Origin: Promethearchaeota archaeon
GTDB taxonomy: Archaea; Asgardarchaeota; Heimdallarchaeia; Hodarchaeales; Hodarchaeaceae
DNA length: 64,000 nt
Reading direction: 5' to 3'
NCBI GenBank assembly: GCA_048938105.1
Contig: JBHLMN010000003.1
Location: forward strand, 64,001 to 128,000
A program made the translations under genes and the position numbers. A model generated the notes under the pieces. The model had not been told where the DNA came from and did not search any database. It saw only the letters and a list, made by a program, of their open reading frames with translations. The number at the start of each line of letters is the position of its first letter. The first letter of the stretch is position 1. Positions 5,214-44,234 of this stretch are shown here, piece after piece.

Positions 5214-8200
5214 ATGACAAGAATTCTTTTAAAACTAATGGCAATATTCTTCATTGGTATATTCCTTTTAAGCCCAGTATCTACAACAGGCATTCTTCAG
5301 GACATTACATACGATGGAGCAACCTCTCTTCCTTCATTAAGGAGCTCCGTTTCACAAGATACCGTCTCGAGTCCAGTAATTCGTAGTGATGATGAACCTG
5401 GTGTTAACGATCGCTATATTCCTGAGGATTATGATATCACAAAGTTCCTCATGAACAACGAAATGGCAACGTATCAAAAAGTATGGGAACCTTGGTTAAC
5501 GAAAGCTGCTGTAAGATGTCTCGCAACTGATCCAAATAACGAATGGATAGCAGTCGGGGGTGGCTATTTGTATGACAATGAGATCCATCTTTACCGCTGG
5601 AACGATTACACCAGAGAATATGATGAGGTGTGGGATAGTGGTGATCAGATCATTCAGGGTGATGTACTCTCAATAGATTTCGGGGATACTGATAATAACG
5701 ATTTTCTGGAAATTGCCTGTGGGAGTGCAGATGGACATGTGTATGTTTTTGAGCAAGAACATATTTACGATCCTTTTGACAACATGGAAAATCAATTCGT
5801 ACATGTTTGGACAAGCCCTAAACTCCAACAAGTTTGGGGAGTCAAAATCGCTGATGTCGATAAAGATTACCTCCCTGACATCATTGCAGGATCTTGGGAT
5901 GAAAAAGTCCATGTCTATGAATACACGAACCATTCAGGTTATCCATTCTCGAAACAACATTGGATTGAATTTACAGAAAAGACCACTATAGATGTTGGCG
6001 AAAAAATATTCTCTATTGCCACAGGGGACACAAACTACAATGCTCTCCCTGAAATCATAGTTGGCACCCAGGAAGGACGTGTTTACATTTATGAGAATAA
6101 TGGAACCATTTTAACGATTAATGGTGAGCCCTGGCCTCTCACCCATGATAATTCCTACCGTTATCACTGGGATACTGGCAATACTTCTTGGAAACCAATT
6201 CTTCGGATTATTGTAGATCAACTTGATGATGACTTAGCAGATGAAATTGTCTATATTTCAGTAGGACAAAATGTCTTTATCATTAATTGGGATAAAACCG
6301 TTGGTATTAAAGGACGATATCTAACCCACCAACTTTGGGAACCTTTGGACTCGTGGGAGCTTGGTGGTCTAGAAGGACTAGGCCATTACCTCAATCACTA
6401 CATCGATTGGATGACTTGGTCTAACAATAATAATACTGGAAACGATGATGAACACGTTTTCAATGAAGAAGGAGCATATAAAATTCTCGAACCTTATCCA
6501 TATCCGTGGATGCCACAATGGCCAAAAAATACATCAATGGCAATCACACGGAAACTTGATCCATGGGGAGAGGGGTTAGATAAATGGATTAAAGGAGTGC
6601 ATTTTCAATATGACCCAGCTGAGAACTATACGACCTTTGATGCTTTGGATACCCTTGCAAGTGCCATCGTCGATTGGGGAAATGATGGAGAGGTTATGGG
6701 AGATGGGCTTTGGGCCATTCCAGACGCGGATCTTGGTTACGATGTCATGTTACGATTCCATTGGAATACAATACCCAATTTAAATCAAATTTCCTTTGAA
6801 ATATCTCGAGGTGATGGTGAATGGGCATTAATACCCAAGAAGGATATTTCTTTAGCCCATGTCGCGGTGGATACTAAGGATGACGATCTTTGGATTGACA
6901 TCGATCCCATCCTTTCGAAAAATCACTGGGCATATTTCCGTTATATGCGAATTAATGTTACTAATGGGGGCATTTTCAAGATTAAAGGTGGTTACGCTCC
7001 AATCCTGTACCGACCAATGGATACTGCTACTTCCGTTGCCATTGGTAATTTGGATTTAAGTTACTACAAAGCTTATACAACAGGTGAATCAGAGGGAAAG
7101 AAAATAGTTCTCGGTACATCCGACGGTAAAATAGTAATGTTTGAATATAATTCAGCAACAAAAGGATATGATGTTCTGTGGAATTCTTATAAGAACGATA
7201 CTTACACTTATGGGACAAATATCTGGGATATTGTGGAAGTTAAGAGCCCAGGTAAGATCCCAACGTGGTTGTACAACGAAGCCACAAGTAATATTCTAGC
7301 AGAAAATCTTGGTTCGACACTCCAGAGTGAGGGACTAGGAAACTTTGCAGCTATGGATCATGCTAATCTAGTACAGTCCTTCTTTGAAACTCTCTTTGGA
7401 TTTGTAACTGAGTTCTTCCCTGGTATGGAAGGCATCATTGAACTCAATATTCCTGGTAATGATCTAGTTGTGGGCACAGATACGGGTGATTTAGTCGTAT
7501 TTTCAGCATTAACAGGGGAATATTCTGAGATGGGAACTTACTTCTTTATTCTTCCTATCGCTGATCCATTTTATATGGATACTTCCGTCTCTCCAACATT
7601 CGTAGACTTTCTAGAGACCAACCCTCTTGATGTTCTTGATCTTATGAAAGAGGAAACAATGTTTCTCAGTTGGGTCAAAAATGACCAGTTGTATAACCCA
7701 GAGGAATTTGGCAGCAGATCAATTGCTGGGATTGATGTTTACACTTACGAATTTCCTGCTGTAAGCTATGCAATTCCTGCTCCTTTCAATCAATATGGAA
7801 ACTTCATAATGAAATTTGAGCTAGCTGAAAGGGAAATTACTGGATTGCTTTCACGGGCCTTAGAAAAGTCCATGAATATCCCTGATATAGCAGCTGGAGA
7901 TGTTGATGGTGATGGTGATAAAGATCTTGTTGTGACAAATGGACGGATTTATTATCTTGAGAACATTATGAATAACATATTCATCTTAGAACCTGAATAT
8001 TTCCAAGATCTCAACCTTCAAACCACAAATAAACTCTATACTTCTCCCGAACTTTATGATTTTGACGGAGACGGAGATTTGGATCTCTCAGTTGGTTTTT
8101 CAAACAGAGAAGGGGCAACATACTTCGAAAACGTTGGCCAACGGTGGGCTCCAGAGTGGAAAGAAAACAAATGGCTCTTTACAAACTCATGGGGTGGATT

Positions 8201-11200
8201 ATGGTACAATAATCTAACTTCTCCGACATTCGCTTTCGATGAAAATGGTCGTGTCAGTCATCTAACTACCTACAATAATTATACAAAGGATATCGTGCAG
8301 CTTAAAGCAGAGTACGAGAACCATAATGCTTACGTCATTGGAACTAATCCAGTTATTGCACGTCTAGAGATGAATTTGAAATCAGGTACTGATTCTTATG
8401 GAAACATGCTCGCTAATTATGGTTATCATGTATTTGAAACTTGGAACACTGAACCTGAGTTAGCACGCTGGACGTTAACGCTTAAAACAGGTGACATGGA
8501 TCAAGATGGGCGAGGAGAAGTAATTGTTGGCGACTATGATAACAATATGTACGTATTTGAACACCTAACAAATAACACGTATAAACGAGCTTATCGTGGG
8601 CAAGATATAACCCATACTGAGCTCTCGACCACCTCACCATACGCTTGGCAAGAATTAGAAGGTGTGAGTGGTACTTTCTATCGAACAATTTGGGATCACA
8701 TTGAGGAATTAGTAATAGGATTAGACATGGATAACGATGGTTTTCTTGAGATGGTTGCTACTGCCGGCCTATCGATTTTCGTTTGGGAACAAAGAAATGA
8801 TGGATTTGTCAGCATAGATGATGAATATACCCTCATTTGGCAAGCTGATTTGAGACAGTCTGCTTGGGCACCTCTCTTCGAAGCATTAGAAATCGATCAT
8901 TTCACTGCAGCAGCATTTGGTGGAGATTTGGACTACAATGGCTATGGTGAATTCATACTCGCAGCTGGTAGTTTCTTATTTGTTTTCGAATCGAATGGTG
9001 CAGATCAGTTCAATGACAACTTCCTCGTTAATCCGTACCCAGTACGCGGACGATATTTCATACCAGGCAATCCGATATCTTCACCTGCCGTAAGAACGTT
9101 ATCTATCGAAGCTATTACGGTGGGTGACACTGATAATGATACCTTAAATGAGATTATCATTGGTGGTGTCAATAAAACGTTATGGGGGCAATATAATGGC
9201 TTTGTTTGTATTTTAGAAAATCAAATTGGCACCTATGATTACACCTGGTGGGCACCAAATCATCTTATGGAAGATAATCCTGTTTACGATATAACGATTG
9301 ACAATCAAGATTATGATCACTACAAGGAAATCATTGTTGGAACGTTTAAGGGTATAGTTATTTATGAAAACGCTCCAGGTAGTTCTAGAGACAACAATTA
9401 TATCGAACGATCAATTCTTACCAGTTATGTTAATTTTCCGTATATTAAATTAAAGCAAATGTTTGATGTTGAAGCTAAATACCCATTAGCGCTAAGAAAC
9501 ACTGATTTTCTTGAGTTACTATATGAACATCCTGAAGGTGACTTCCACAGAGGTGATTGGATTCAAATTTTCAAAAGTGGCAATCGACTCTGCTGGGCCA
9601 CAAGTGATGACAATGGCAGTACTTGGATCCAACGCCTTACTGTAACAACTACCAACTTACAATCTGAAAGCAAAAACTACTTTCAAACTTCTTATGAATA
9701 TCACCCCTCTATTTACCAAACAAGAGACGGCCGTGTTTGGTTGGCTTTCACCGCAAAATTGGACTTTGGAGGATACAGTGGCTCGGATATGTATGAAGGA
9801 ATTTGGCTATTAGAGTTATCTAAAATCGGAAACGACTATTATTGGACAAATCCAGAAAGTAGTGTAGCCATCGACGGGAGTGACTCTGCATATTTGTTAT
9901 ACAATCCTAGTATTTGGGATTATCAAGACAATACGGAGCAAGGTGTAGCTATTTCCTACATGAATAGTTCAGATGGAGGTATTTACTGGAAAGGTGACTT
10001 TAATAGCCCCACATCAGCTCCTCTAGGGGATTATGGACAGATTCCTAACATTGGACAAGATCCAAGCACAAATAAGTACCAAGCCTTTTATCATGATGCA
10101 ATTCGGTCTTTCAGCGATAAAGTCGTTGTGGTTTTCAGTGGTCGTTGTTATGCTGAAGCCAAGGTAGACCTCGATTTGTGGATTGCTAAATCAAATAGTA
10201 CACCTATCTGGGATAATCAATCCCGATATTCTAGAGCAACAATAGATGGTATTGATGAATTGAATCCATCAATCACCCAAACAGTCACTCCAGATCATAC
10301 TCTTCTAGTAATATTTGAAGCTGACGGGTATAGTCCCTCTGGTGCATTACAAGTGACTTATTCTAAGGATGATGGTGAAAGTTGGCGAGACCCAGAACCA
10401 ATTTCAACAACCCCACCCTTTGCTGAATATATCCACTATCCGCAATTCGGGTTCAGTCTTCTTGTCTTAAAAGATGACCCTTACATTCTTGTTACTTCTC
10501 TAATTACGGTAGGTCCTGCAATTACCGCACATTATGAAGGTGGATTTGCATATTCTTTTATGGCACAATATAATTTAATTGGTCTTGGACATCTTTCTGT
10601 TTCTGGTCGGACTTCATCAATGAAAACCATGAACCGTGGTTATTCAACAACAGGGACAACAGGGACAACCACAACTACTACTTACACAACAGGCGATTTA
10701 TCAGCACATTCGGGAATGGTACGCCAAATCGGCGGTAGTTTGACCACTGGAGGGGGTAAGGTAAGTTATCAAGGACAAGTAATAGGCTCCTATTCTACTG
10801 CCACAAATGATGGAGGTGGTGGTAGTGCCCTATATTATGCAGCCACCACTCCTGCCGTGGTAAACTATAATGTACCGATCGTAACGGGGGAACAAGAAGG
10901 TGTTGGGACATATGGTGGAAATATCCTTTCATATCAAGGAGATGTAATGGGCACTGATGATCCTGAAGAAGATGAAAATACAGGTAGCGGATATCCTCCA
11001 GGGGAAGGCGGTGGGATGTTGTTAGTTGCTGCTGCCAACTATGATGGCTTCAATTTTCATTCTGATGCAAGCTATAGCGATCGTGGTTACTTCAATAACA
11101 TCTTCTTTGGTCTAAATCCTTCCTCTAATTTCACATTATTTGATTTTAAAGAGGTTAGGGCACTTAGTACTGGCGATTCAGATAAAGATTACCGTCGCGA

Positions 11201-38428: not shown

Positions 38429-38983
38429 ATGAACTATGACGATGAGAAGGCAAAATATCATCTTAAAATCATTGTTTGTGGCGCTGGAGCAGTGGGAAAA
38501 ACATCAATTGTAAGACGTTATGTAGAAGACAAGTTTGAATTCAACTACTTGCTTACAATAGGTTTAGACCCAACCAATCGTCGAATTGAAATTGATGGAT
38601 TTCTTGTTAATTTGGTTATTTTTGATGTGGCTGGCCAAAAACGCTTTCAAACGTTACGAGATATCTTTTTCAGGAAAGCTAATGGTGCTATTTTAGTTTT
38701 CGACCTTACACGACAAGAAACTGTTGATGAACTTTATGAATGGAAAGAACAGATAGACAAGCGCCTAGGGAAAAACCATATCCCGATGATTTTAATTGGT
38801 AATAAATCTGATCTTGAAGATATAATACAAATTGATTATAGTTATCTCGAAGATCAAGTTATTCCAGATTTTACACCAATTAAATATCTAGAAACTTCAG
38901 CGTATCAAGATAAAAATATACGTGAAACATTTTACTTTTTAACCAAAGAAATTCTAATACAACAAGGTATTATTTCATCTTAG
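38429..38983 (+). CDS. Rab/Ras-like small GTPase
   Basis: GAGAVGKT (G1), LTIG (G2), DVAGQ (G3), NKSD (G4), ETSA (G5). No C-terminal Cys. Confidence 0.93.
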   Translation: MNYDDEKAKYHLKIIVCGAGAVGKTSIVRRYVEDKFEFNYLLTIGLDPTNRRIEIDGFLVNLVIFDVAGQKRFQTLRDIFFRKANGAILVFDLTRQETVDELYEWKEQIDKRLGKNHIPMILIGNKSDLEDIIQIDYSYLEDQVIPDFTPIKYLETSAYQDKNIRETFYFLTKEILIQQGIISS

Positions 38984-39365
38984 AAATTAGAACCTAGTAT
39001 AAAAGAACCCATGTTCTCCCCGTCCCATTTTCTTATGTAATCCTTGTGAAAAATCGCAAAGAATTTATTTCTGAGATAAATCGTCTTAATACTCTCGTAG
39101 ATTTTACCCATCTGATAATTCTCTGAAAAATCCTCATAAATTATACTCTTCTACTCTTACATAGGCTTTATATGACAAGGATTTCAAAAACTAATAAGTA
39201 ATGATTTATTTATACCTAAAAAATTGCTAAAGAATTTTAAAAGTCTATCTAGAGATTCTATTCACTAAAAAACCTTAATTACAGAAGCCCAAATTAGTAA
39301 TGAATGAATCCGACAAAAATAATCTTTTTATATAATATTCATTAGAAAAGCACAAAAAAAAATCA

Positions 39366-39584
39366 TTATATCAATTGTGTAAAAAATCCTTGAAAAATGG
39401 GTTTCTCTATTCTAAGGGCATCCCCTTCGCAATTTAATTCACATGCTCGACATTTCAGACAAATAGCAGGCTTTACAAGCTTTGCTTTGGTTTTATTGGT
39501 GTCAAACGTAAAACAACCTCGTGGACATACTTGTATACAGAACTGGCATCCTATACAACGTTCTATATTGAAATGTATTACCAT
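39366..39584 (-). CDS. 2[4Fe-4S] ferredoxin, HgcB-like
   Basis: CIGCQFCIQVCP and CLKCRACELNC. Lies 5 nt downstream of the HgcA-like gene with its own GGAGG. Confidence 0.9.
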   Translation of the reverse strand: MVIHFNIERCIGCQFCIQVCPRGCFTFDTNKTKAKLVKPAICLKCRACELNCEGDALRIEKPIFQGFFTQLI

Positions 39585-39589
39585 GTTTG

Positions 39590-40564
39590 TTAACCTCCAA
39601 TGATAAACGGTGTGACAATCAATCCAAGTATAATTACCAATGCTGCTCCAGTAAGGAGTATATAATCCTTTATAATAAAATCAGTCCCCCAAAAGGGCGT
39701 AAAACCATCAAAATCTGTACTGATAATTAAACCATATAGTAATAGTGTACCAAACCCTATAGCAAAATCCATGGTCGAACTTGTAAAAAATAAACCAGTA
39801 GATAATGGAACCAGAACGATAGAAAGGATAATCCCTTTGAAAAATCCCGAATTGAAAGGAACCACGGGATAAAGTACACCTATTAAACACCCGAAGAACC
39901 ATATATATAATAGAAGGAATACTACATTTCTCTGTAACCACCAAGCCCATGGCTGCAGTAAAAAACCAAGAGGTTGAGCTAAAATTGCAATTCCTAATAC
40001 TAGAGGTAGTAAGATTAAGGAAATGAAAACGTTATGAGAGATACTGTTCTCTAAACGTCTTTTAAGATTAAATTCAACTTGAGATATCTTTGCTGATTTT
40101 ATTTGATCATTCTGCAAATACTCGCTTAAATCGTTAATATATACTGGACCGAATTTCGCTTCCCATTCAGCCTTTTTCAGTACAATATGATCAACTCCAG
40201 CAGCTGAAAGTTGTGGAAGTATTAACTGACGATGATTTATCGCTTCTGATAGATCGGTATCTTCTATTTGTTCAAGAATCTTCTCTGCAGTAAAATTACC
40301 CCCTACAGCGGAACACCAAACATTCACTCCTTCAGTATCAACTACTAACAACCAGGAATTAATGTTCTGTTTCTCTAAAGAAGACACAATCCTTTTGTAA
40401 GTAACAAAATAATTTGAAGTTACCAAAACAGGAGATTCTTCAGTTGGATTACCAATTGGATAAAGTCCAGGTTTAACGTTCAAGTTGAAACCGGGGAAGG
40501 CGATCCCTGCAATAACTATTGAAAACAATTCTTTGAGTACATCCAACATACTCATTATGATCAC
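39590..40564 (-). CDS. HgcA-like corrinoid protein (CdhD/CFeSP-like cobalamin domain plus TM domain)
   Basis: KPGLYPIGNPTEESPVLVTSNY, WLLVVDTEGVNVWCSAVGG (cap helix), HRQLILPQLSAAGV, FGPV, then ~5 TM helices. Confidence 0.88.
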   Translation of the reverse strand: MIIMSMLDVLKELFSIVIAGIAFPGFNLNVKPGLYPIGNPTEESPVLVTSNYFVTYKRIVSSLEKQNINSWLLVVDTEGVNVWCSAVGGNFTAEKILEQIEDTDLSEAINHRQLILPQLSAAGVDHIVLKKAEWEAKFGPVYINDLSEYLQNDQIKSAKISQVEFNLKRRLENSISHNVFISLILLPLVLGIAILAQPLGFLLQPWAWWLQRNVVFLLLYIWFFGCLIGVLYPVVPFNSGFFKGIILSIVLVPLSTGLFFTSSTMDFAIGFGTLLLYGLIISTDFDGFTPFWGTDFIIKDYILLTGAALVIILGLIVTPFIIGG

Positions 40565-40603
40565 ACATCTGGGTTTATTGAATATTATATTTTTAATTTA
40601 CTC

Positions 40604-41254
40604 TCACTTAGCTTCCTTCTTGATAATAAATAAGGTAAGATGTCCATTTAGGTAATGTTTTTGATCAATGATGGAACCAAAAGTTGATAGAAGAGTTGTT
40701 ATATCATGAATAGGATGTTTTGGAACTTTAACGAATGTTGTGGCTATTATGTAGGCAGGGAATCTCAGCAAATTGATAACTAAACGTTTGATTCTGCTTG
40801 TGGGGATTGATTCTGTGACAAGTATAAGTATACCATTTGTTTTCAAGCAGGAATGAAACTCATTAAGGGTTTTTTTAACCCCCTCGTAGTTTAATTCCGA
40901 TAAAACCAGAGAACAGAGAATAATATCGAATAATTCGAGTTTTAGTGGTAGAGCAGTAATTGAAGATCTAACCAGACAAGGGAGGGATTTTCTTCCAAAA
41001 AATCTTTTTCGTGCTTGCTGAAGCATTTTTTCAGAGATATCAATACCAATATGATCTACCCAAGTAGCATCTGCTATTTCTATAAAACGACCAGTACCAC
41101 AACCTGCATCAAGAAGAAACTGATTTTTATGCAAATAATTCTCTTTAATATATGTATAAATCCTACCACGGCGACCAAAAGTTAGAAAATTGATTAAACA
41201 CTCATATTTATTTGGTGCCTTCTTTTCAGCTAATGTCATCAAAATTGTTGCCAT
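40604..41254 (-). CDS. cpaM: Class I SAM-dependent methyltransferase resembling corrinoid-protein-associated methyltransferase CpaM
   Basis: LLDAGCGTG, GIDISEKML, FDIILCSLVLSEL. The N-terminal LMxxxExxPxKYxxxIxxLTxG pattern is recalled from CpaM (not searched). Adjacent to the HgcA-like gene. ATG 41254 preferred over the track start 41266. Confidence 0.7.
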   Translation of the reverse strand: MATILMTLAEKKAPNKYECLINFLTFGRRGRIYTYIKENYLHKNQFLLDAGCGTGRFIEIADATWVDHIGIDISEKMLQQARKRFFGRKSLPCLVRSSITALPLKLELFDIILCSLVLSELNYEGVKKTLNEFHSCLKTNGILILVTESIPTSRIKRLVINLLRFPAYIIATTFVKVPKHPIHDITTLLSTFGSIIDQKHYLNGHLTLFIIKKEAK

Positions 41255-41525: not shown

Positions 41526-42773
41526 TTAGTTTCTCAAAAAAAGGAGAAAAAAGAATCCACATAAGGAAAAGAAGCACGCGAAGTAAAAAATCAATGAATA
41601 CTGGCCTGGAGCTATCGCCAATAATATTCCATCAATAGAAGGCCCTAAAGCACCTACAAGATTAGCAACAAGCATTACCCAACCAAAAGCTCTTCCCTGT
41701 TGTGTTGAGTTTTTAGCTACAAGACTATTCGTCGAAGGCCAAAATAAGGCGTTCATTATTCCTAATAGGATATAAAGGAAGAGGAGAACCAGATTATCAA
41801 AAATTACAAACATAGATGCCAGAATTAATACTTGAAAAACTGCGGTAAACAAAAGAACAACCTTTTCTCCATATTTATCCCCAAAAAGTCCACCTACAAC
41901 TTGTCCTGTTGATCCAAGAAGAGCTGATAGACCAATATATAAAGCAGCAACTGAAATTTCTATATCTTTTACTTCTGACAGGAATGGTGAAAGAATGAAA
42001 TTGATCATTCCTCGTGTTAATGACATTACAGTTATAAAACTAAAAATAAGCAACAGCACGGAAAATTGCCCCTTATTCAAGAGGATTCTCTCAGTGGTTA
42101 ATTTATCTTGAGAAATTGGTGTTAAAGATTCACTTTGAGATTCATGCCTTCCTACGAAGAACCAGAAGACTATTGCTAATATAAATAGTGGAAAAGACCA
42201 AAGTAAATAGATTGAACGCCACGATATTGAATCAATAAGGAAGTAGACTGATATTGGTCCTATTGAAGATCCTATACTACCGCCAATTCCATGCATTGCT
42301 AATATTTGAACATATTTAGGAGAATAGGAACGAGTATTTGGATCTTCAAAAGCAGTCGAAATCCAAGAAAGGCCAGCAGGATGATAGAGAGCGAGACCAA
42401 ATCCCAGAAAAATTACACCAAATAACATTACAATAAATGACTCTCCCCATGAACCAATAAAAAAAGCCCCTAAAGCAGCAAAAATCAAACTAATTAACAT
42501 CAACGTTCCTCTCCGATATTTATCTGCTAATCTCCCAAAAATAGGGGCGGGAAGGCCTGCTGCTAATGTTCCAATTGTTCCTAGTGACCCTAATCCAATC
42601 CAACTTAGTTCTCCCAAATTAGGAAACAGATCTTCTCCTATAAGAAGTAAAATTACAGGAAAAATAAAAAAAGGTATTTCTATACTACAATGAATAAGAA
42701 TAGCAGAGACTAAGCTGATATTGGGAGTTATCTTTTCAGTTGTTTTTTCCATCAAATCAGTGCATCGACCCAC
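41526..42773 (-). CDS. MFS transporter
   Basis: GRLADKYRRG and GLFGDKYGEK motif A, GLALYHPAG, ~12 TM. Probable ATG at 42752. Confidence 0.9.
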   Translation of the reverse strand: MGRCTDLMEKTTEKITPNISLVSAILIHCSIEIPFFIFPVILLLIGEDLFPNLGELSWIGLGSLGTIGTLAAGLPAPIFGRLADKYRRGTLMLISLIFAALGAFFIGSWGESFIVMLFGVIFLGFGLALYHPAGLSWISTAFEDPNTRSYSPKYVQILAMHGIGGSIGSSIGPISVYFLIDSISWRSIYLLWSFPLFILAIVFWFFVGRHESQSESLTPISQDKLTTERILLNKGQFSVLLLIFSFITVMSLTRGMINFILSPFLSEVKDIEISVAALYIGLSALLGSTGQVVGGLFGDKYGEKVVLLFTAVFQVLILASMFVIFDNLVLLFLYILLGIMNALFWPSTNSLVAKNSTQQGRAFGWVMLVANLVGALGPSIDGILLAIAPGQYSLIFYFACFFSLCGFFFLLFLRN

Positions 42774-42822
42774 ATGTGCAGCAAGAATTCAGAATTTATG
42801 AGGCGAGAAATTGTGTCATTTA

Positions 42823-43785
42823 TTAATCTTCAAGTTTTATAGAAGCAGCTCCACTTTGTCTTTCATAACTGACCATTGCTACCCCTATTGCACAAAAAAT
42901 GCCTCCTATGAGGGCAAAAAACGATTGTTCTCCCAAAAAAATCCAAGCAAAAAGCAATGAAAATAATGGTATTAAAAACTGGATATTTCCAGCCTGTGTT
43001 GGCCCAAACTTTTGAACTAGCTGCAAATAAAGAGTGAATGCAACTGCTGCAGCGCCTACACCAATTACTACTAGTCCCCAAATACTCTCTAATGTATAGC
43101 TTTCAAATGAAGGAAGATATTCTGTTGATAAGGAAAGTATTAGCAAGATCATTGAAGCAATAAAAAGATTAAGAGCTGTAACCTCCTCTGAGTGACTTTC
43201 TTGAAAAAACCACCTTAATGATAGCGAATAACCAGCCCAAGCGACACCTGATAGAAAACCTAAAAGGTACCCAAGGATAAAATCCATCATAGGAATACTC
43301 TCTGTCTCTAAAGACGTTAAAAAGATAAAGCCAATGCCTATAGATGATATGACAAATCCTAAAGTTTTTTTACTGGAATATTTTTCATCTACGAATAGTA
43401 ATGGGGCAAAAACATAAATTAGGACAGGATTAAAATTTAGAAGAACGGAAGAACTACCTCCAAGAATGAACAAAACCGAAAAGTTTTGGCCAATAATCAT
43501 TAAGACTAGCCAAGATGAGCAAAATAAAATGGATTTAAAATGCTTTTTTAAGAGATGTTTCAAGTTCTCAAGCTTTTTTTGAAATCCTATAATCATTAAT
43601 AAAGCAATAAATCCGAAAATATAACGGAGAAAGCCAAAATACAATCCTGGGAAAAAACTTTTCGTACCAACCCAAAGTTTTGATACTAAGGGCGGAGTTG
43701 ACCAAAGTATTACAATAATAATTGCCTTTACGAAGAAATCTGGGTCAAATTTCTTTTCTGAGGAATGCATTAGCTTAAAACTCAT
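42823..43785 (-). CDS. DMT/EamA-family transporter
   Basis: Two EamA repeats with ~10 TM; FLRY, AWAGYS and LFAWIFLGE motifs. Confidence 0.9.
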   Translation of the reverse strand: MSFKLMHSSEKKFDPDFFVKAIIIVILWSTPPLVSKLWVGTKSFFPGLYFGFLRYIFGFIALLMIIGFQKKLENLKHLLKKHFKSILFCSSWLVLMIIGQNFSVLFILGGSSSVLLNFNPVLIYVFAPLLFVDEKYSSKKTLGFVISSIGIGFIFLTSLETESIPMMDFILGYLLGFLSGVAWAGYSLSLRWFFQESHSEEVTALNLFIASMILLILSLSTEYLPSFESYTLESIWGLVVIGVGAAAVAFTLYLQLVQKFGPTQAGNIQFLIPLFSLLFAWIFLGEQSFFALIGGIFCAIGVAMVSYERQSGAASIKLED

Positions 43786-44234
43786 CAGCGAAAGAAAGAA
43801 TATAGAATTAGATCTTTGCTTAAGAATTCCTTTCGTAAATAGCCTTCAGGAAGAAATTCAAAATGGGCAATGATTTTACGCATTGGCACATTCCAGGGTC
43901 GTATATATATTTTCACCTTGAACCAGTCATTTTTTCGGGCCAAATCCAGACAAGCTTCAATTAATCTTGTACCAATGCCATTTCCTCTGTAGCTAGGATC
44001 CACAGCTAACATATGAATCTGTGCAGGTTGTTCTTTTGTCTCTGCTTGAATTAATGCAAAAGCAATGAGCTTATTATTTTCCTCTTCCACGAGAAGCACG
44101 ACTTCTTCTTTTTCAATTCTCGAAGTTAGGAGTGACGGGGAAGGTAATTGCATTCCTTCTTCAATTTCATCTTTAAAGCAGATAGTCATTAATTCAATGA
44201 CCTTGGAGATGTCTTCTTGTTTAGAAGTTCGCAT
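43785..44234 (-). CDS. GNAT-family N-acetyltransferase
   Basis: LAVDPSYRGNGIGTRL acetyl-CoA motif. 1-nt overlap with the EamA gene. Confidence 0.9.
   Translation of the reverse strand: MRTSKQEDISKVIELMTICFKDEIEEGMQLPSPSLLTSRIEKEEVVLLVEEENNKLIAFALIQAETKEQPAQIHMLAVDPSYRGNGIGTRLIEACLDLARKNDWFKVKIYIRPWNVPMRKIIAHFEFLPEGYLRKEFLSKDLILYSFFR

Follow-up and report, generated by a model that had tools for sequence, protein, structure and literature searches.

We describe a three-gene operon on the minus strand of a 64,000-nucleotide stretch of a Promethearchaeota archaeon genome (Hodarchaeales; assembly GCA_048938105.1, contig JBHLMN010000003.1, positions 64,001 to 128,000; hereafter the window). In order of transcription it encodes an S-adenosylmethionine (SAM) dependent methyltransferase (MT), an HgcA-like corrinoid membrane protein (A) and a small ferredoxin (B). 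Overall, we believe the locus is probably a self-contained three-protein methyl relay, and that it represents a lineage that branches deeply within the HgcA-like superfamily and is fully unfused; the superfamily includes both the CpaM + HgcAB-like module and the true HgcAB of mercury methylators. To our knowledge no enzyme other than HgcAB makes methylmercury, and its methyl donor was identified as SAM only in 2024. In this context, the locus described here shows that, across the Asgard archaea, an HgcA scaffold is accompanied by a SAM methyltransferase of its own and that all possible fusion states occur, and the three separable genes of the locus, each of which could be expressed and mixed alone, make the questions of how the methyl group is loaded and where it goes easier to test than in the fused forms.

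The three co-oriented genes lie at 40604-41254 (MT, 216 residues), 39590-40555 (A, 321 residues) and 39366-39584 (B, 72 residues). An earlier note on this DNA had read them as a SAM methyltransferase, a corrinoid/transmembrane protein and a 2[4Fe-4S] ferredoxin in one operon, and the open reading frames, domains and gene order all bear this out, as does the sequence for each of the motifs it quoted (NVWCSAVGG, DFDGFTP, the GG ending and CLKCRAC). The MT and corrinoid genes are spaced 48 nt apart on the same strand. The junction between A and the ferredoxin reads ATT GGA GGT TAA CAAAC ATG, so that a TAA stop and a gap of 5 nt separate two genes in different frames; the split is therefore real, as had been proposed, and it is kept in all nine intact orthologous loci. 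The GGAGG attributed to the ferredoxin is likewise present, and can be placed within the final codons of the corrinoid gene. A run of nine T residues (39354-39362, minus strand) comes right after the ferredoxin stop and is likely the oligo-T archaeal terminator of the operon. Because nine other genomes hold the intact triad in identical order, the locus is confirmed as a genuine three-gene operon and not a chance pattern.

The A protein joins a corrinoid-binding Rossmann-like domain (residues about 25-150; 40106-40483, minus strand) to a five-helix transmembrane domain (residues 164-320; 39596-40066, minus strand). PF03599 (CdhD) matches residues 28-139 over profile positions 266-376 at 86.6 bits, passing its gathering threshold of 24.8, and the AlphaFold2 (AF2) model (pLDDT 90.7, pTM 0.81) consists of the Rossmann-like domain, a cap helix at residues 79-85 and then five long helices, which would span the membrane at residues 164-192, 197-228, 237-256, 261-285 and 291-320. 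The top Foldseek match of this model is the published HgcAB model 9a0b_A, over its full length (E = 1.3e-12), followed by large subunits of the corrinoid iron-sulfur protein (CFeSP; root-mean-square deviation 1.4-2.9 over ~130 residues). A sequence search of the Protein Data Bank returned only CFeSP (E = 1e-16 to 2h9a and 4c1n), the corrinoid domain of A matching residues 313-438 of the CFeSP gamma subunits. Across 33 diverse members the superfamily invariants are G30, G76, N78, V79, W80, C81, LPQL at 113-116, A118 and G136, and A retains every one of them. The DFDGFTP segment (residues 281-287; 39695-39715, minus strand) corresponds in the alignment to NFTG(S/C)T(T/P) in true HgcA and to DF.G.TP in other paralogues; a D/N-F-x-G-x-T/S-P motif in the membrane domain is common to the whole superfamily. 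The protein ends in ...FIIGG.

At the same time, A is not a canonical HgcA, in line with what had been supposed from its sequence. Its cap helix, NVWCSAVGG (residues 78-86; 40298-40324, minus strand), with the putative cobalt ligand Cys81, keeps the N, V, W and C but has no terminal Lys, and it is not among the six cap-helix motifs of confirmed mercury methylators, N(V/I)WC(A/S)(A/G/S)GK (PMC10087281). In our cap-helix census true HgcA ends in ...GK and the window clade reads NVWCS[AS][AV]G[GRK], with one clade member, P0005, carrying the Lys-terminated NVWCSAAGK. The A protein scores 173.0 bits against the NCBIfam HgcA model NF040863 (cut-off 275) and falls outside a true-HgcA clade with 100/100 support; its score against HgcAB_like (NF043039) is 213.7 bits, also below the cut-off of 285. 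With a proxy true-HgcA hidden Markov model (HMM) built from 80 GK-motif HgcA sequences, it reaches 208.9 bits, against 301-451 for held-out true HgcA. This is well below the genuine enzymes and above the 100-bit limit of 'moderate stringency' in the consensus protocol (PMC10087281), which makes plausible the suggestion that such genes are false positives of hgcA surveys: proteins of the window type would pass score-only screens at moderate stringency and would fail a cap-helix motif filter.

The ferredoxin departs from HgcB in a similar manner. Matched by Fer4 families, it carries two cluster motifs, CIGCQFCIQVC and CLKCRACELNC, and its only cysteines are at positions 10, 13, 16, 20, 24, 42, 45, 48 and 52, that is, the eight cluster residues and C24. 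With no Cys beyond C52, it has neither an equivalent of HgcB Cys73 nor a C-terminal Cys pair, in agreement with what had been read from its CLKCRAC motif and its tail. HgcB residues C73, C94 and C95 are reported as crucial to the methylation of mercury (PMC11588087), and their absence is the most direct argument from sequence that Hg(II) may not be what this system handles in the manner of HgcB. True HgcB proteins (L063, L064) carry GVGC...CC, and the partner ferredoxins of MT-A fusions, four from other Asgard loci and one from a second system in this same genome, carry GCGC and a C-terminal Cys pair; the split-type ferredoxins of Hodarchaeales and Thorarchaeota have no such cysteines. NCBIfam scores for the window ferredoxin are about equal for HgcAB_like (54.5, cut-off 285) and HgcB (NF040864; 51.9, cut-off 99), both below cut-off, and a simple sum of the HgcAB_like scores of A and the ferredoxin comes to ~268 against the cut-off of 285. 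The additional C24 lies in PRGC (residues 21-24; nt 39513-39524), just past the first cluster motif; it is kept in three other fully recovered Hodarchaeales ferredoxins (CP(R/T)GCF) and is Val in Thorarchaeota (CPRGVW). The second cluster motif ends in CE, not CP. A true hgcAB locus from a JGI metagenome (L062, 4609-4890) has an in-frame TGA at the HgcB Cys73-equivalent position (GVG-U-AYAII), with the frame running on to ...NCDRC; this is a probable selenocysteine HgcB, a form suggested in literature cited by PMC11588087.

The methyltransferase begins with MATILM, as in its orthologues, carries LDAGCGTG at residues 48-55 and matches Pfam Methyltransf_11 at 65 bits. Its top NCBIfam match is CpaM (NF043040), which agrees with its description in the earlier note as CpaM-like; the match is full-length, with residues 8-216 aligned to positions 3-215 of the 216 in the profile, and its score of 125.3 bits lies below the cut-off of 180. 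The AF2 model (pLDDT 88) has a generic class I Rossmann-type methyltransferase fold. The nearest solved folds include Coq5 (TMq 0.76) and phosphatidylethanolamine N-methyltransferase of the PmtA type (0.74), and the fold search, with ~500 matches at E <= 0.001, identifies a generic class I enzyme and gives no substrate clue. Alignment shows family-wide conservation of an N-terminal MATILM..E helix, LD.GCGTG, LSE, E148, P151 and R164, and the methyltransferases from all fusion architectures align as a single family with N-terminal and catalytic-core motifs in common.

Of the 20 other genomes in the window's genus-level group, 9 carry an intact orthologous triad, with identities of 60-86% for A, 40-79% for MT and 53-78% for B and with all three frames intact. 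In a tenth copy (G065) the triad is interrupted where the assembly has a gap, and what might have been taken there for a variant with only the corrinoid-binding domain was rejected on account of the run of N. Among 399 Asgard genomes, some PF03599/HgcA-like gene is present in 286, and the split orthologue (E < 1e-120) is limited to the window's own genus-level group. Metagenome-assembled genomes (MAGs) of Hodarchaeales and Heimdallarchaeota, and a few MAGs with other NCBI labels, account for the close homologues of A (56-100% identity; 33 clusters at the 90% level), all of which are annotated as hypothetical or left nameless. A library of 1.8 billion proteins clustered at 50% added essentially one further cluster of the clade, the next matches being at 34-39% identity; the nearest matches outside the clade are the MT-A fusions P0122, P0124 and P0125, at 37-39%. 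A second unfused clade is represented by 15 triad loci, Thorarchaeota by NCBI name, with the cap helix IN(V/A)WCGSRG(G/S).

The association with the methyltransferase extends well beyond these triads. The order MT > A > B holds in all 32 loci fetched by tblastn with the three window proteins, among them the 9 Hodarchaeales orthologue loci, the 15 Thorarchaeota triads and 5 MT-A fusions followed by a ferredoxin. In Asgard loci encoding A-B fusions, a CpaM-like gene lies directly upstream in 19 of 20, and the twentieth is cut by the contig end. The homologues include A alone, A-B (~360-420 residues), MT-A (~540-560 residues) and even MT-A-B in a single chain (P0129, P0136, P0159, P0180, P0254). 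One of the latter, P0129, from a Ranarchaeia MAG and named 'HgcAB-like fusion protein' by NCBI, scores above cut-off for both CpaM (264.9) and HgcAB_like (362.1), while a canonical Asgard pair (L061), used as calibration, scores 240.8 and 372.5. No methyltransferase was present in the three true hgcAB loci (GK cap helix) that were checked, where a regulator and hgcB were found. The genomes behind these linkage counts are related to one another, and the counts do not represent independent events; the fusions are the stronger argument for linkage. Both the split and the methyltransferase linkage are thus conserved, the latter at every informative paralogue locus examined, in keeping with what had been anticipated for this system. 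The Asgard A-B fusions (L065-L084, mostly of family f20) have the cap helix NVWCGACG, with a second Cys three residues past the putative cobalt ligand.

Trees rooted with CdhD/E corrinoid domains place the window protein neither within canonical HgcA nor securely within the canonical fused family. Under LG+G4 (117 rows), the true-HgcA clade and the window clade are each fully supported and are separate. Under LG+C20 with posterior mean site frequencies (PMSF; 68 rows), an open basal trichotomy consists of the clades of Hodarchaeales (100/98) and Thorarchaeota (100/100) and of all remaining sequences (85/94), and the window clade stands outside the canonical A-B / MT-A-B clade (99/92). Reading the protein as an unfused form from within the fused HgcAB-like family, as had been suggested earlier, is thus upheld as to resemblance, HgcAB_like being the best NCBIfam model for A, and is not secure as to membership, given the score of 213.7 against 285 and the position outside the canonical fused clade in the LG+C20 tree; the comparison with CdhD/E, fused HgcAB and true HgcA that had been proposed does not nest the protein in canonical HgcA. 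In the LG+C20 tree, true HgcA (100/100) is united with a number of MT-A lineages at 97/82, among them P0034, P0077, P0126, L026 and L030, a grouping that the LG+G4 tree leaves unresolved.

It is possible, if doubtful, that the unfused Hodarchaeales and Thorarchaeota triads preserve an early-diverging, ancestral architecture, that HgcAB arose from a methyltransferase-bearing ancestor whose native activity was SAM-dependent, Cys-on cobalamin methylation of an acceptor other than mercury at the membrane, and that mercury methylation is a late branch in which the SAM-binding domain was lost. An ancestor of that kind is hinted at by the grouping of true HgcA with MT-A lineages, together with the HgcB-like tails of the MT-A ferredoxins. 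Two of the four MT-A ferredoxins examined in other Asgard loci (L026, L030) belong to lineages represented in the LG+C20 tree.

How might such a relay work? In HgcAB, a cobalamin ligated by a Cys thiolate is reduced at low potential to Co(I), with a ferredoxin as reductant, and takes a SAM-derived methyl group to form methyl-Co(III) (PMC11588087). By analogy, the window ferredoxin would deliver low-potential electrons to the corrinoid on A, bringing it to Co(I). The CpaM-like methyltransferase would then bind SAM and offer it to Co(I), generating methyl-Co(III) with Cys81 as the lower axial ligand. Finally, an acceptor gaining access to the cofactor at, or by way of, the five-helix membrane domain would take up the methyl group. 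The role of the methyltransferase as the loader is suggested by its obligatory linkage and by the fusions. The acceptor is probably not Hg(II), because the cap-helix Lys and the HgcB-type cysteines are absent, the protein lies outside the true-HgcA clade, and tested organisms with fused HgcAB paralogues do not methylate mercury (PMC10087281). The particular acceptors that had been named, a metalloid or a lipid, found no direct support.

Several observations weigh against a dedicated methyl relay of deep-branching origin. Purified HgcAB takes the methyl group of SAM without a separate methyltransferase (PMC11588087), and a loader is therefore not obviously needed; the MT might instead have the final acceptor, or something else, as its target. 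None of the three proteins reaches the curated cut-off of any family to which it bears a resemblance. The deep placement of the window clade depends on the model: the LG+G4 tree nests it within a broad paralogue group (SH-aLRT 84/94), as sister to the unfused Thorarchaeota clade (SH-aLRT 87), and its stem is long, so that it may be attracted toward the root. The approximately unbiased (AU) test does not reject a tree in which the window clade and true HgcA are joined (p = 0.43). Nor does the neighbourhood help, since among 18 wider loci no gene that would hint at the acceptor is conserved beyond the triad across Hodarchaeales, Thorarchaeota and MT-A loci.

The result of the AU test is among the points in favour of a model wherein A and B act as HgcAB, a divergent but genuine mercury methylase, and the MT is an accessory. 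The overall architecture is alike, the ligand Cys is retained, true HgcAB also uses SAM as its donor (PMC11588087), and P0005, within the same clade, even has the Lys-ended helix. Such a model is nonetheless very unlikely, given that NVWCSAVG is outside the six confirmed-methylator motifs (PMC10087281), that the HMM scores fall short in both cases (173 against 275 for HgcA, 209 against 301-451 for the proxy), that the ferredoxin lacks every one of the crucial HgcB cysteines (PMC11588087), that the clade is excluded from true HgcA at 100/100, and that the tested organisms with paralogous fused forms were non-methylating (PMC10087281). Another alternative is a purely reductive chemistry: Co(I) would serve as a supernucleophile toward halomethanes or other alkyl halides, methyl-Co(III) would derive from the substrate and not from SAM, and the MT would be reserved for another step. 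A recent preprint reports that heterologously expressed HgcAB dechlorinates carbon tetrachloride and puts forward the view that the ancestral substrates were halomethanes (10.64898/2026.04.26.720869), and a ferredoxin with a membrane anchor is compatible with a reductive enzyme. We regard this as quite unlikely, however, as it leaves unexplained the obligatory and often fused SAM methyltransferase of every paralogue lineage examined; the 2026 preprint, moreover, concerns true HgcAB and is not peer reviewed, and the locus has no dehalogenase-type context.

Methylation of an organic acceptor by a tailoring enzyme, the acceptor being a membrane lipid or quinone, a peptide or a natural product, with no metal or metalloid involved, is a sub-case of the three-protein methyl relay and not a true alternative to it. 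The presence of Coq5 and phosphatidylethanolamine N-methyltransferase among the nearest folds of the MT, and the loss from the ferredoxin of the thiol tail expected for soft-metal handling, point in this direction; the fold matches are generic, however, being two of some 500, and no biosynthetic neighbours are conserved in Hodarchaeales, Thorarchaeota or MT-A loci, so that we consider this version unlikely. It is hardly credible, finally, that a fused gene has left the triad behind as a remnant that is decaying or without function. All three scores are indeed sub-threshold and the triad is missing from about half of the genus, but nine other species-level genomes carry the three intact frames at the identities given above, the superfamily invariants are all retained, the models of A and MT are both confident, and an independent unfused clade exists in Thorarchaeota.

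Comparison with characterized and catalogued systems helps to place the proposed relay. The CpaM + HgcAB-like module is known from Podar 2015, Gilmour 2018 and Lin 2023 as 'fused HgcAB', for example in Pyrococcus furiosus. The identity and order of its three parts agree with those of the window system, its cap helix also ends in GG, and its two NCBIfam models (NF043040 and NF043039) are the best ones for the window MT and A. It differs in that the window ferredoxin is a separate, out-of-frame gene and Ser follows the Cys of the window cap helix, in that the window scores (213.7 against 285 for A, 125.3 against 180 for MT) lie below those of the canonical Asgard pair (372.5 and 240.8), and in that the window clade lies outside the canonical fused clade (99/92) of the LG+C20 tree. 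Asgard sequences were placed in the fused clade by Lin et al. 2023 (PMC10087281, PMC10083202). With HgcA/HgcB of Pseudodesulfovibrio mercurii ND132, the window system shares the corrinoid domain followed by five transmembrane helices, the NVWC cap helix, the D/N-F-x-G-x-T/S-P/T motif, a separate small dicluster ferredoxin directly downstream and SAM as the expected methyl source (PMC11588087); it lacks the cap-helix Lys, the ferredoxin C73 equivalent and C-terminal Cys pair, and an upstream ArsR/MarR regulator, and it has a dedicated MT where the three true hgcAB loci have none.

The MT-A fusions, which are widespread in Asgard archaea and fit no NCBIfam model in the three cases tested, belong to the same superfamily and share the MT family, and their ferredoxin is likewise encoded by its own gene. 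In contrast to the window system, their MT is joined to the N-terminus of the corrinoid protein and their HgcB-like ferredoxins have the GCGC and C-terminal Cys pair that the window ferredoxin lacks. More distantly, CFeSP (AcsC/AcsD, CdhE/CdhD) has a homologous corrinoid domain and is likewise a corrinoid loaded by a methyltransferase (MeTr) and in need of reductive activation (RACo). CFeSP, however, is soluble, holds its cobalt base-off without a Cys ligand and receives its methyl group from methyltetrahydrofolate or its tetrahydromethanopterin counterpart; it also has TIM-barrel and [4Fe-4S] domains that are absent from the window A protein, which matches only the C-terminal corrinoid domain, and its MeTr is itself a TIM barrel, whereas the window MT is a class I SAM enzyme.

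Part of this was already known: the module is catalogued by NCBI (NF043039, NF043040), and the mercury literature treats the fused form as a non-methylating paralogue. What is new is a fully unfused, sub-threshold, deep-branching lineage whose ferredoxin has no Cys tail, along with its Thorarchaeota counterpart, to which may be added the possible position of true HgcA among MT-fused relatives. Our literature search found no use of 'CpaM' or 'corrinoid protein-associated methyltransferase' in this sense, and no pairing of hgcA with Hodarchaeales beyond a phylum review. Hodarchaeales are currently argued to be the archaeal group closest to eukaryotes, and the locus places another uncharacterised cobalamin enzyme in them, with no link to eukaryogenesis implied.

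The same genome encodes, on a different contig, a second HgcA-like system (G000:C56), a 554-residue MT-A fusion (8404-10068, minus strand) with the cap helix INVWCAAGGK, followed by an 87-residue ferredoxin (8124-8387, minus strand) with HgcB-like GCGC and a C-terminal CC. One organism thus carries two paralogous methyl-relay systems with differing ferredoxin tails. This second paralogue is the only other PF03599 gene in the genome; the genome has no CdhD/E, and the triad is therefore not a component of a Wood-Ljungdahl pathway. CobS and CbiB were not found in this 99%-complete genome, yet it has 11 matches to B12-binding domains, several of them in frames of 470-600 residues, which suggests that the host uses corrinoids and probably depends on their salvage.

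Upstream GNAT, EamA and major facilitator superfamily (MFS) genes, the last of them 271 nt from the triad, and a downstream Ras-like GTPase gene are syntenic within the genus only, alongside plainly unrelated genes. A link to arsenic through the MFS, EamA and GNAT genes was considered and rejected, as their NCBIfam matches are weak and at superfamily level, with faint ArsK and ArsN1 matches far below cut-offs. Five genus members without the triad (L091-L095) are also missing the MFS and GNAT genes (window 41526-44234) and have kept the downstream flank, which consists of a TPR protein, a dNMP kinase, a 615-residue membrane protein and the Ras-like GTPase; one deletion or insertion in one subclade could account for the joint absence of the triad and these two genes. 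The GTPase itself is a Rab/Ras small GTPase (38429-38983, plus strand; Pfam Ras, 142 bits), encoded convergently and directly beyond the 3' end of the operon, and its position is kept in all genus members examined, whether the triad is present or not.

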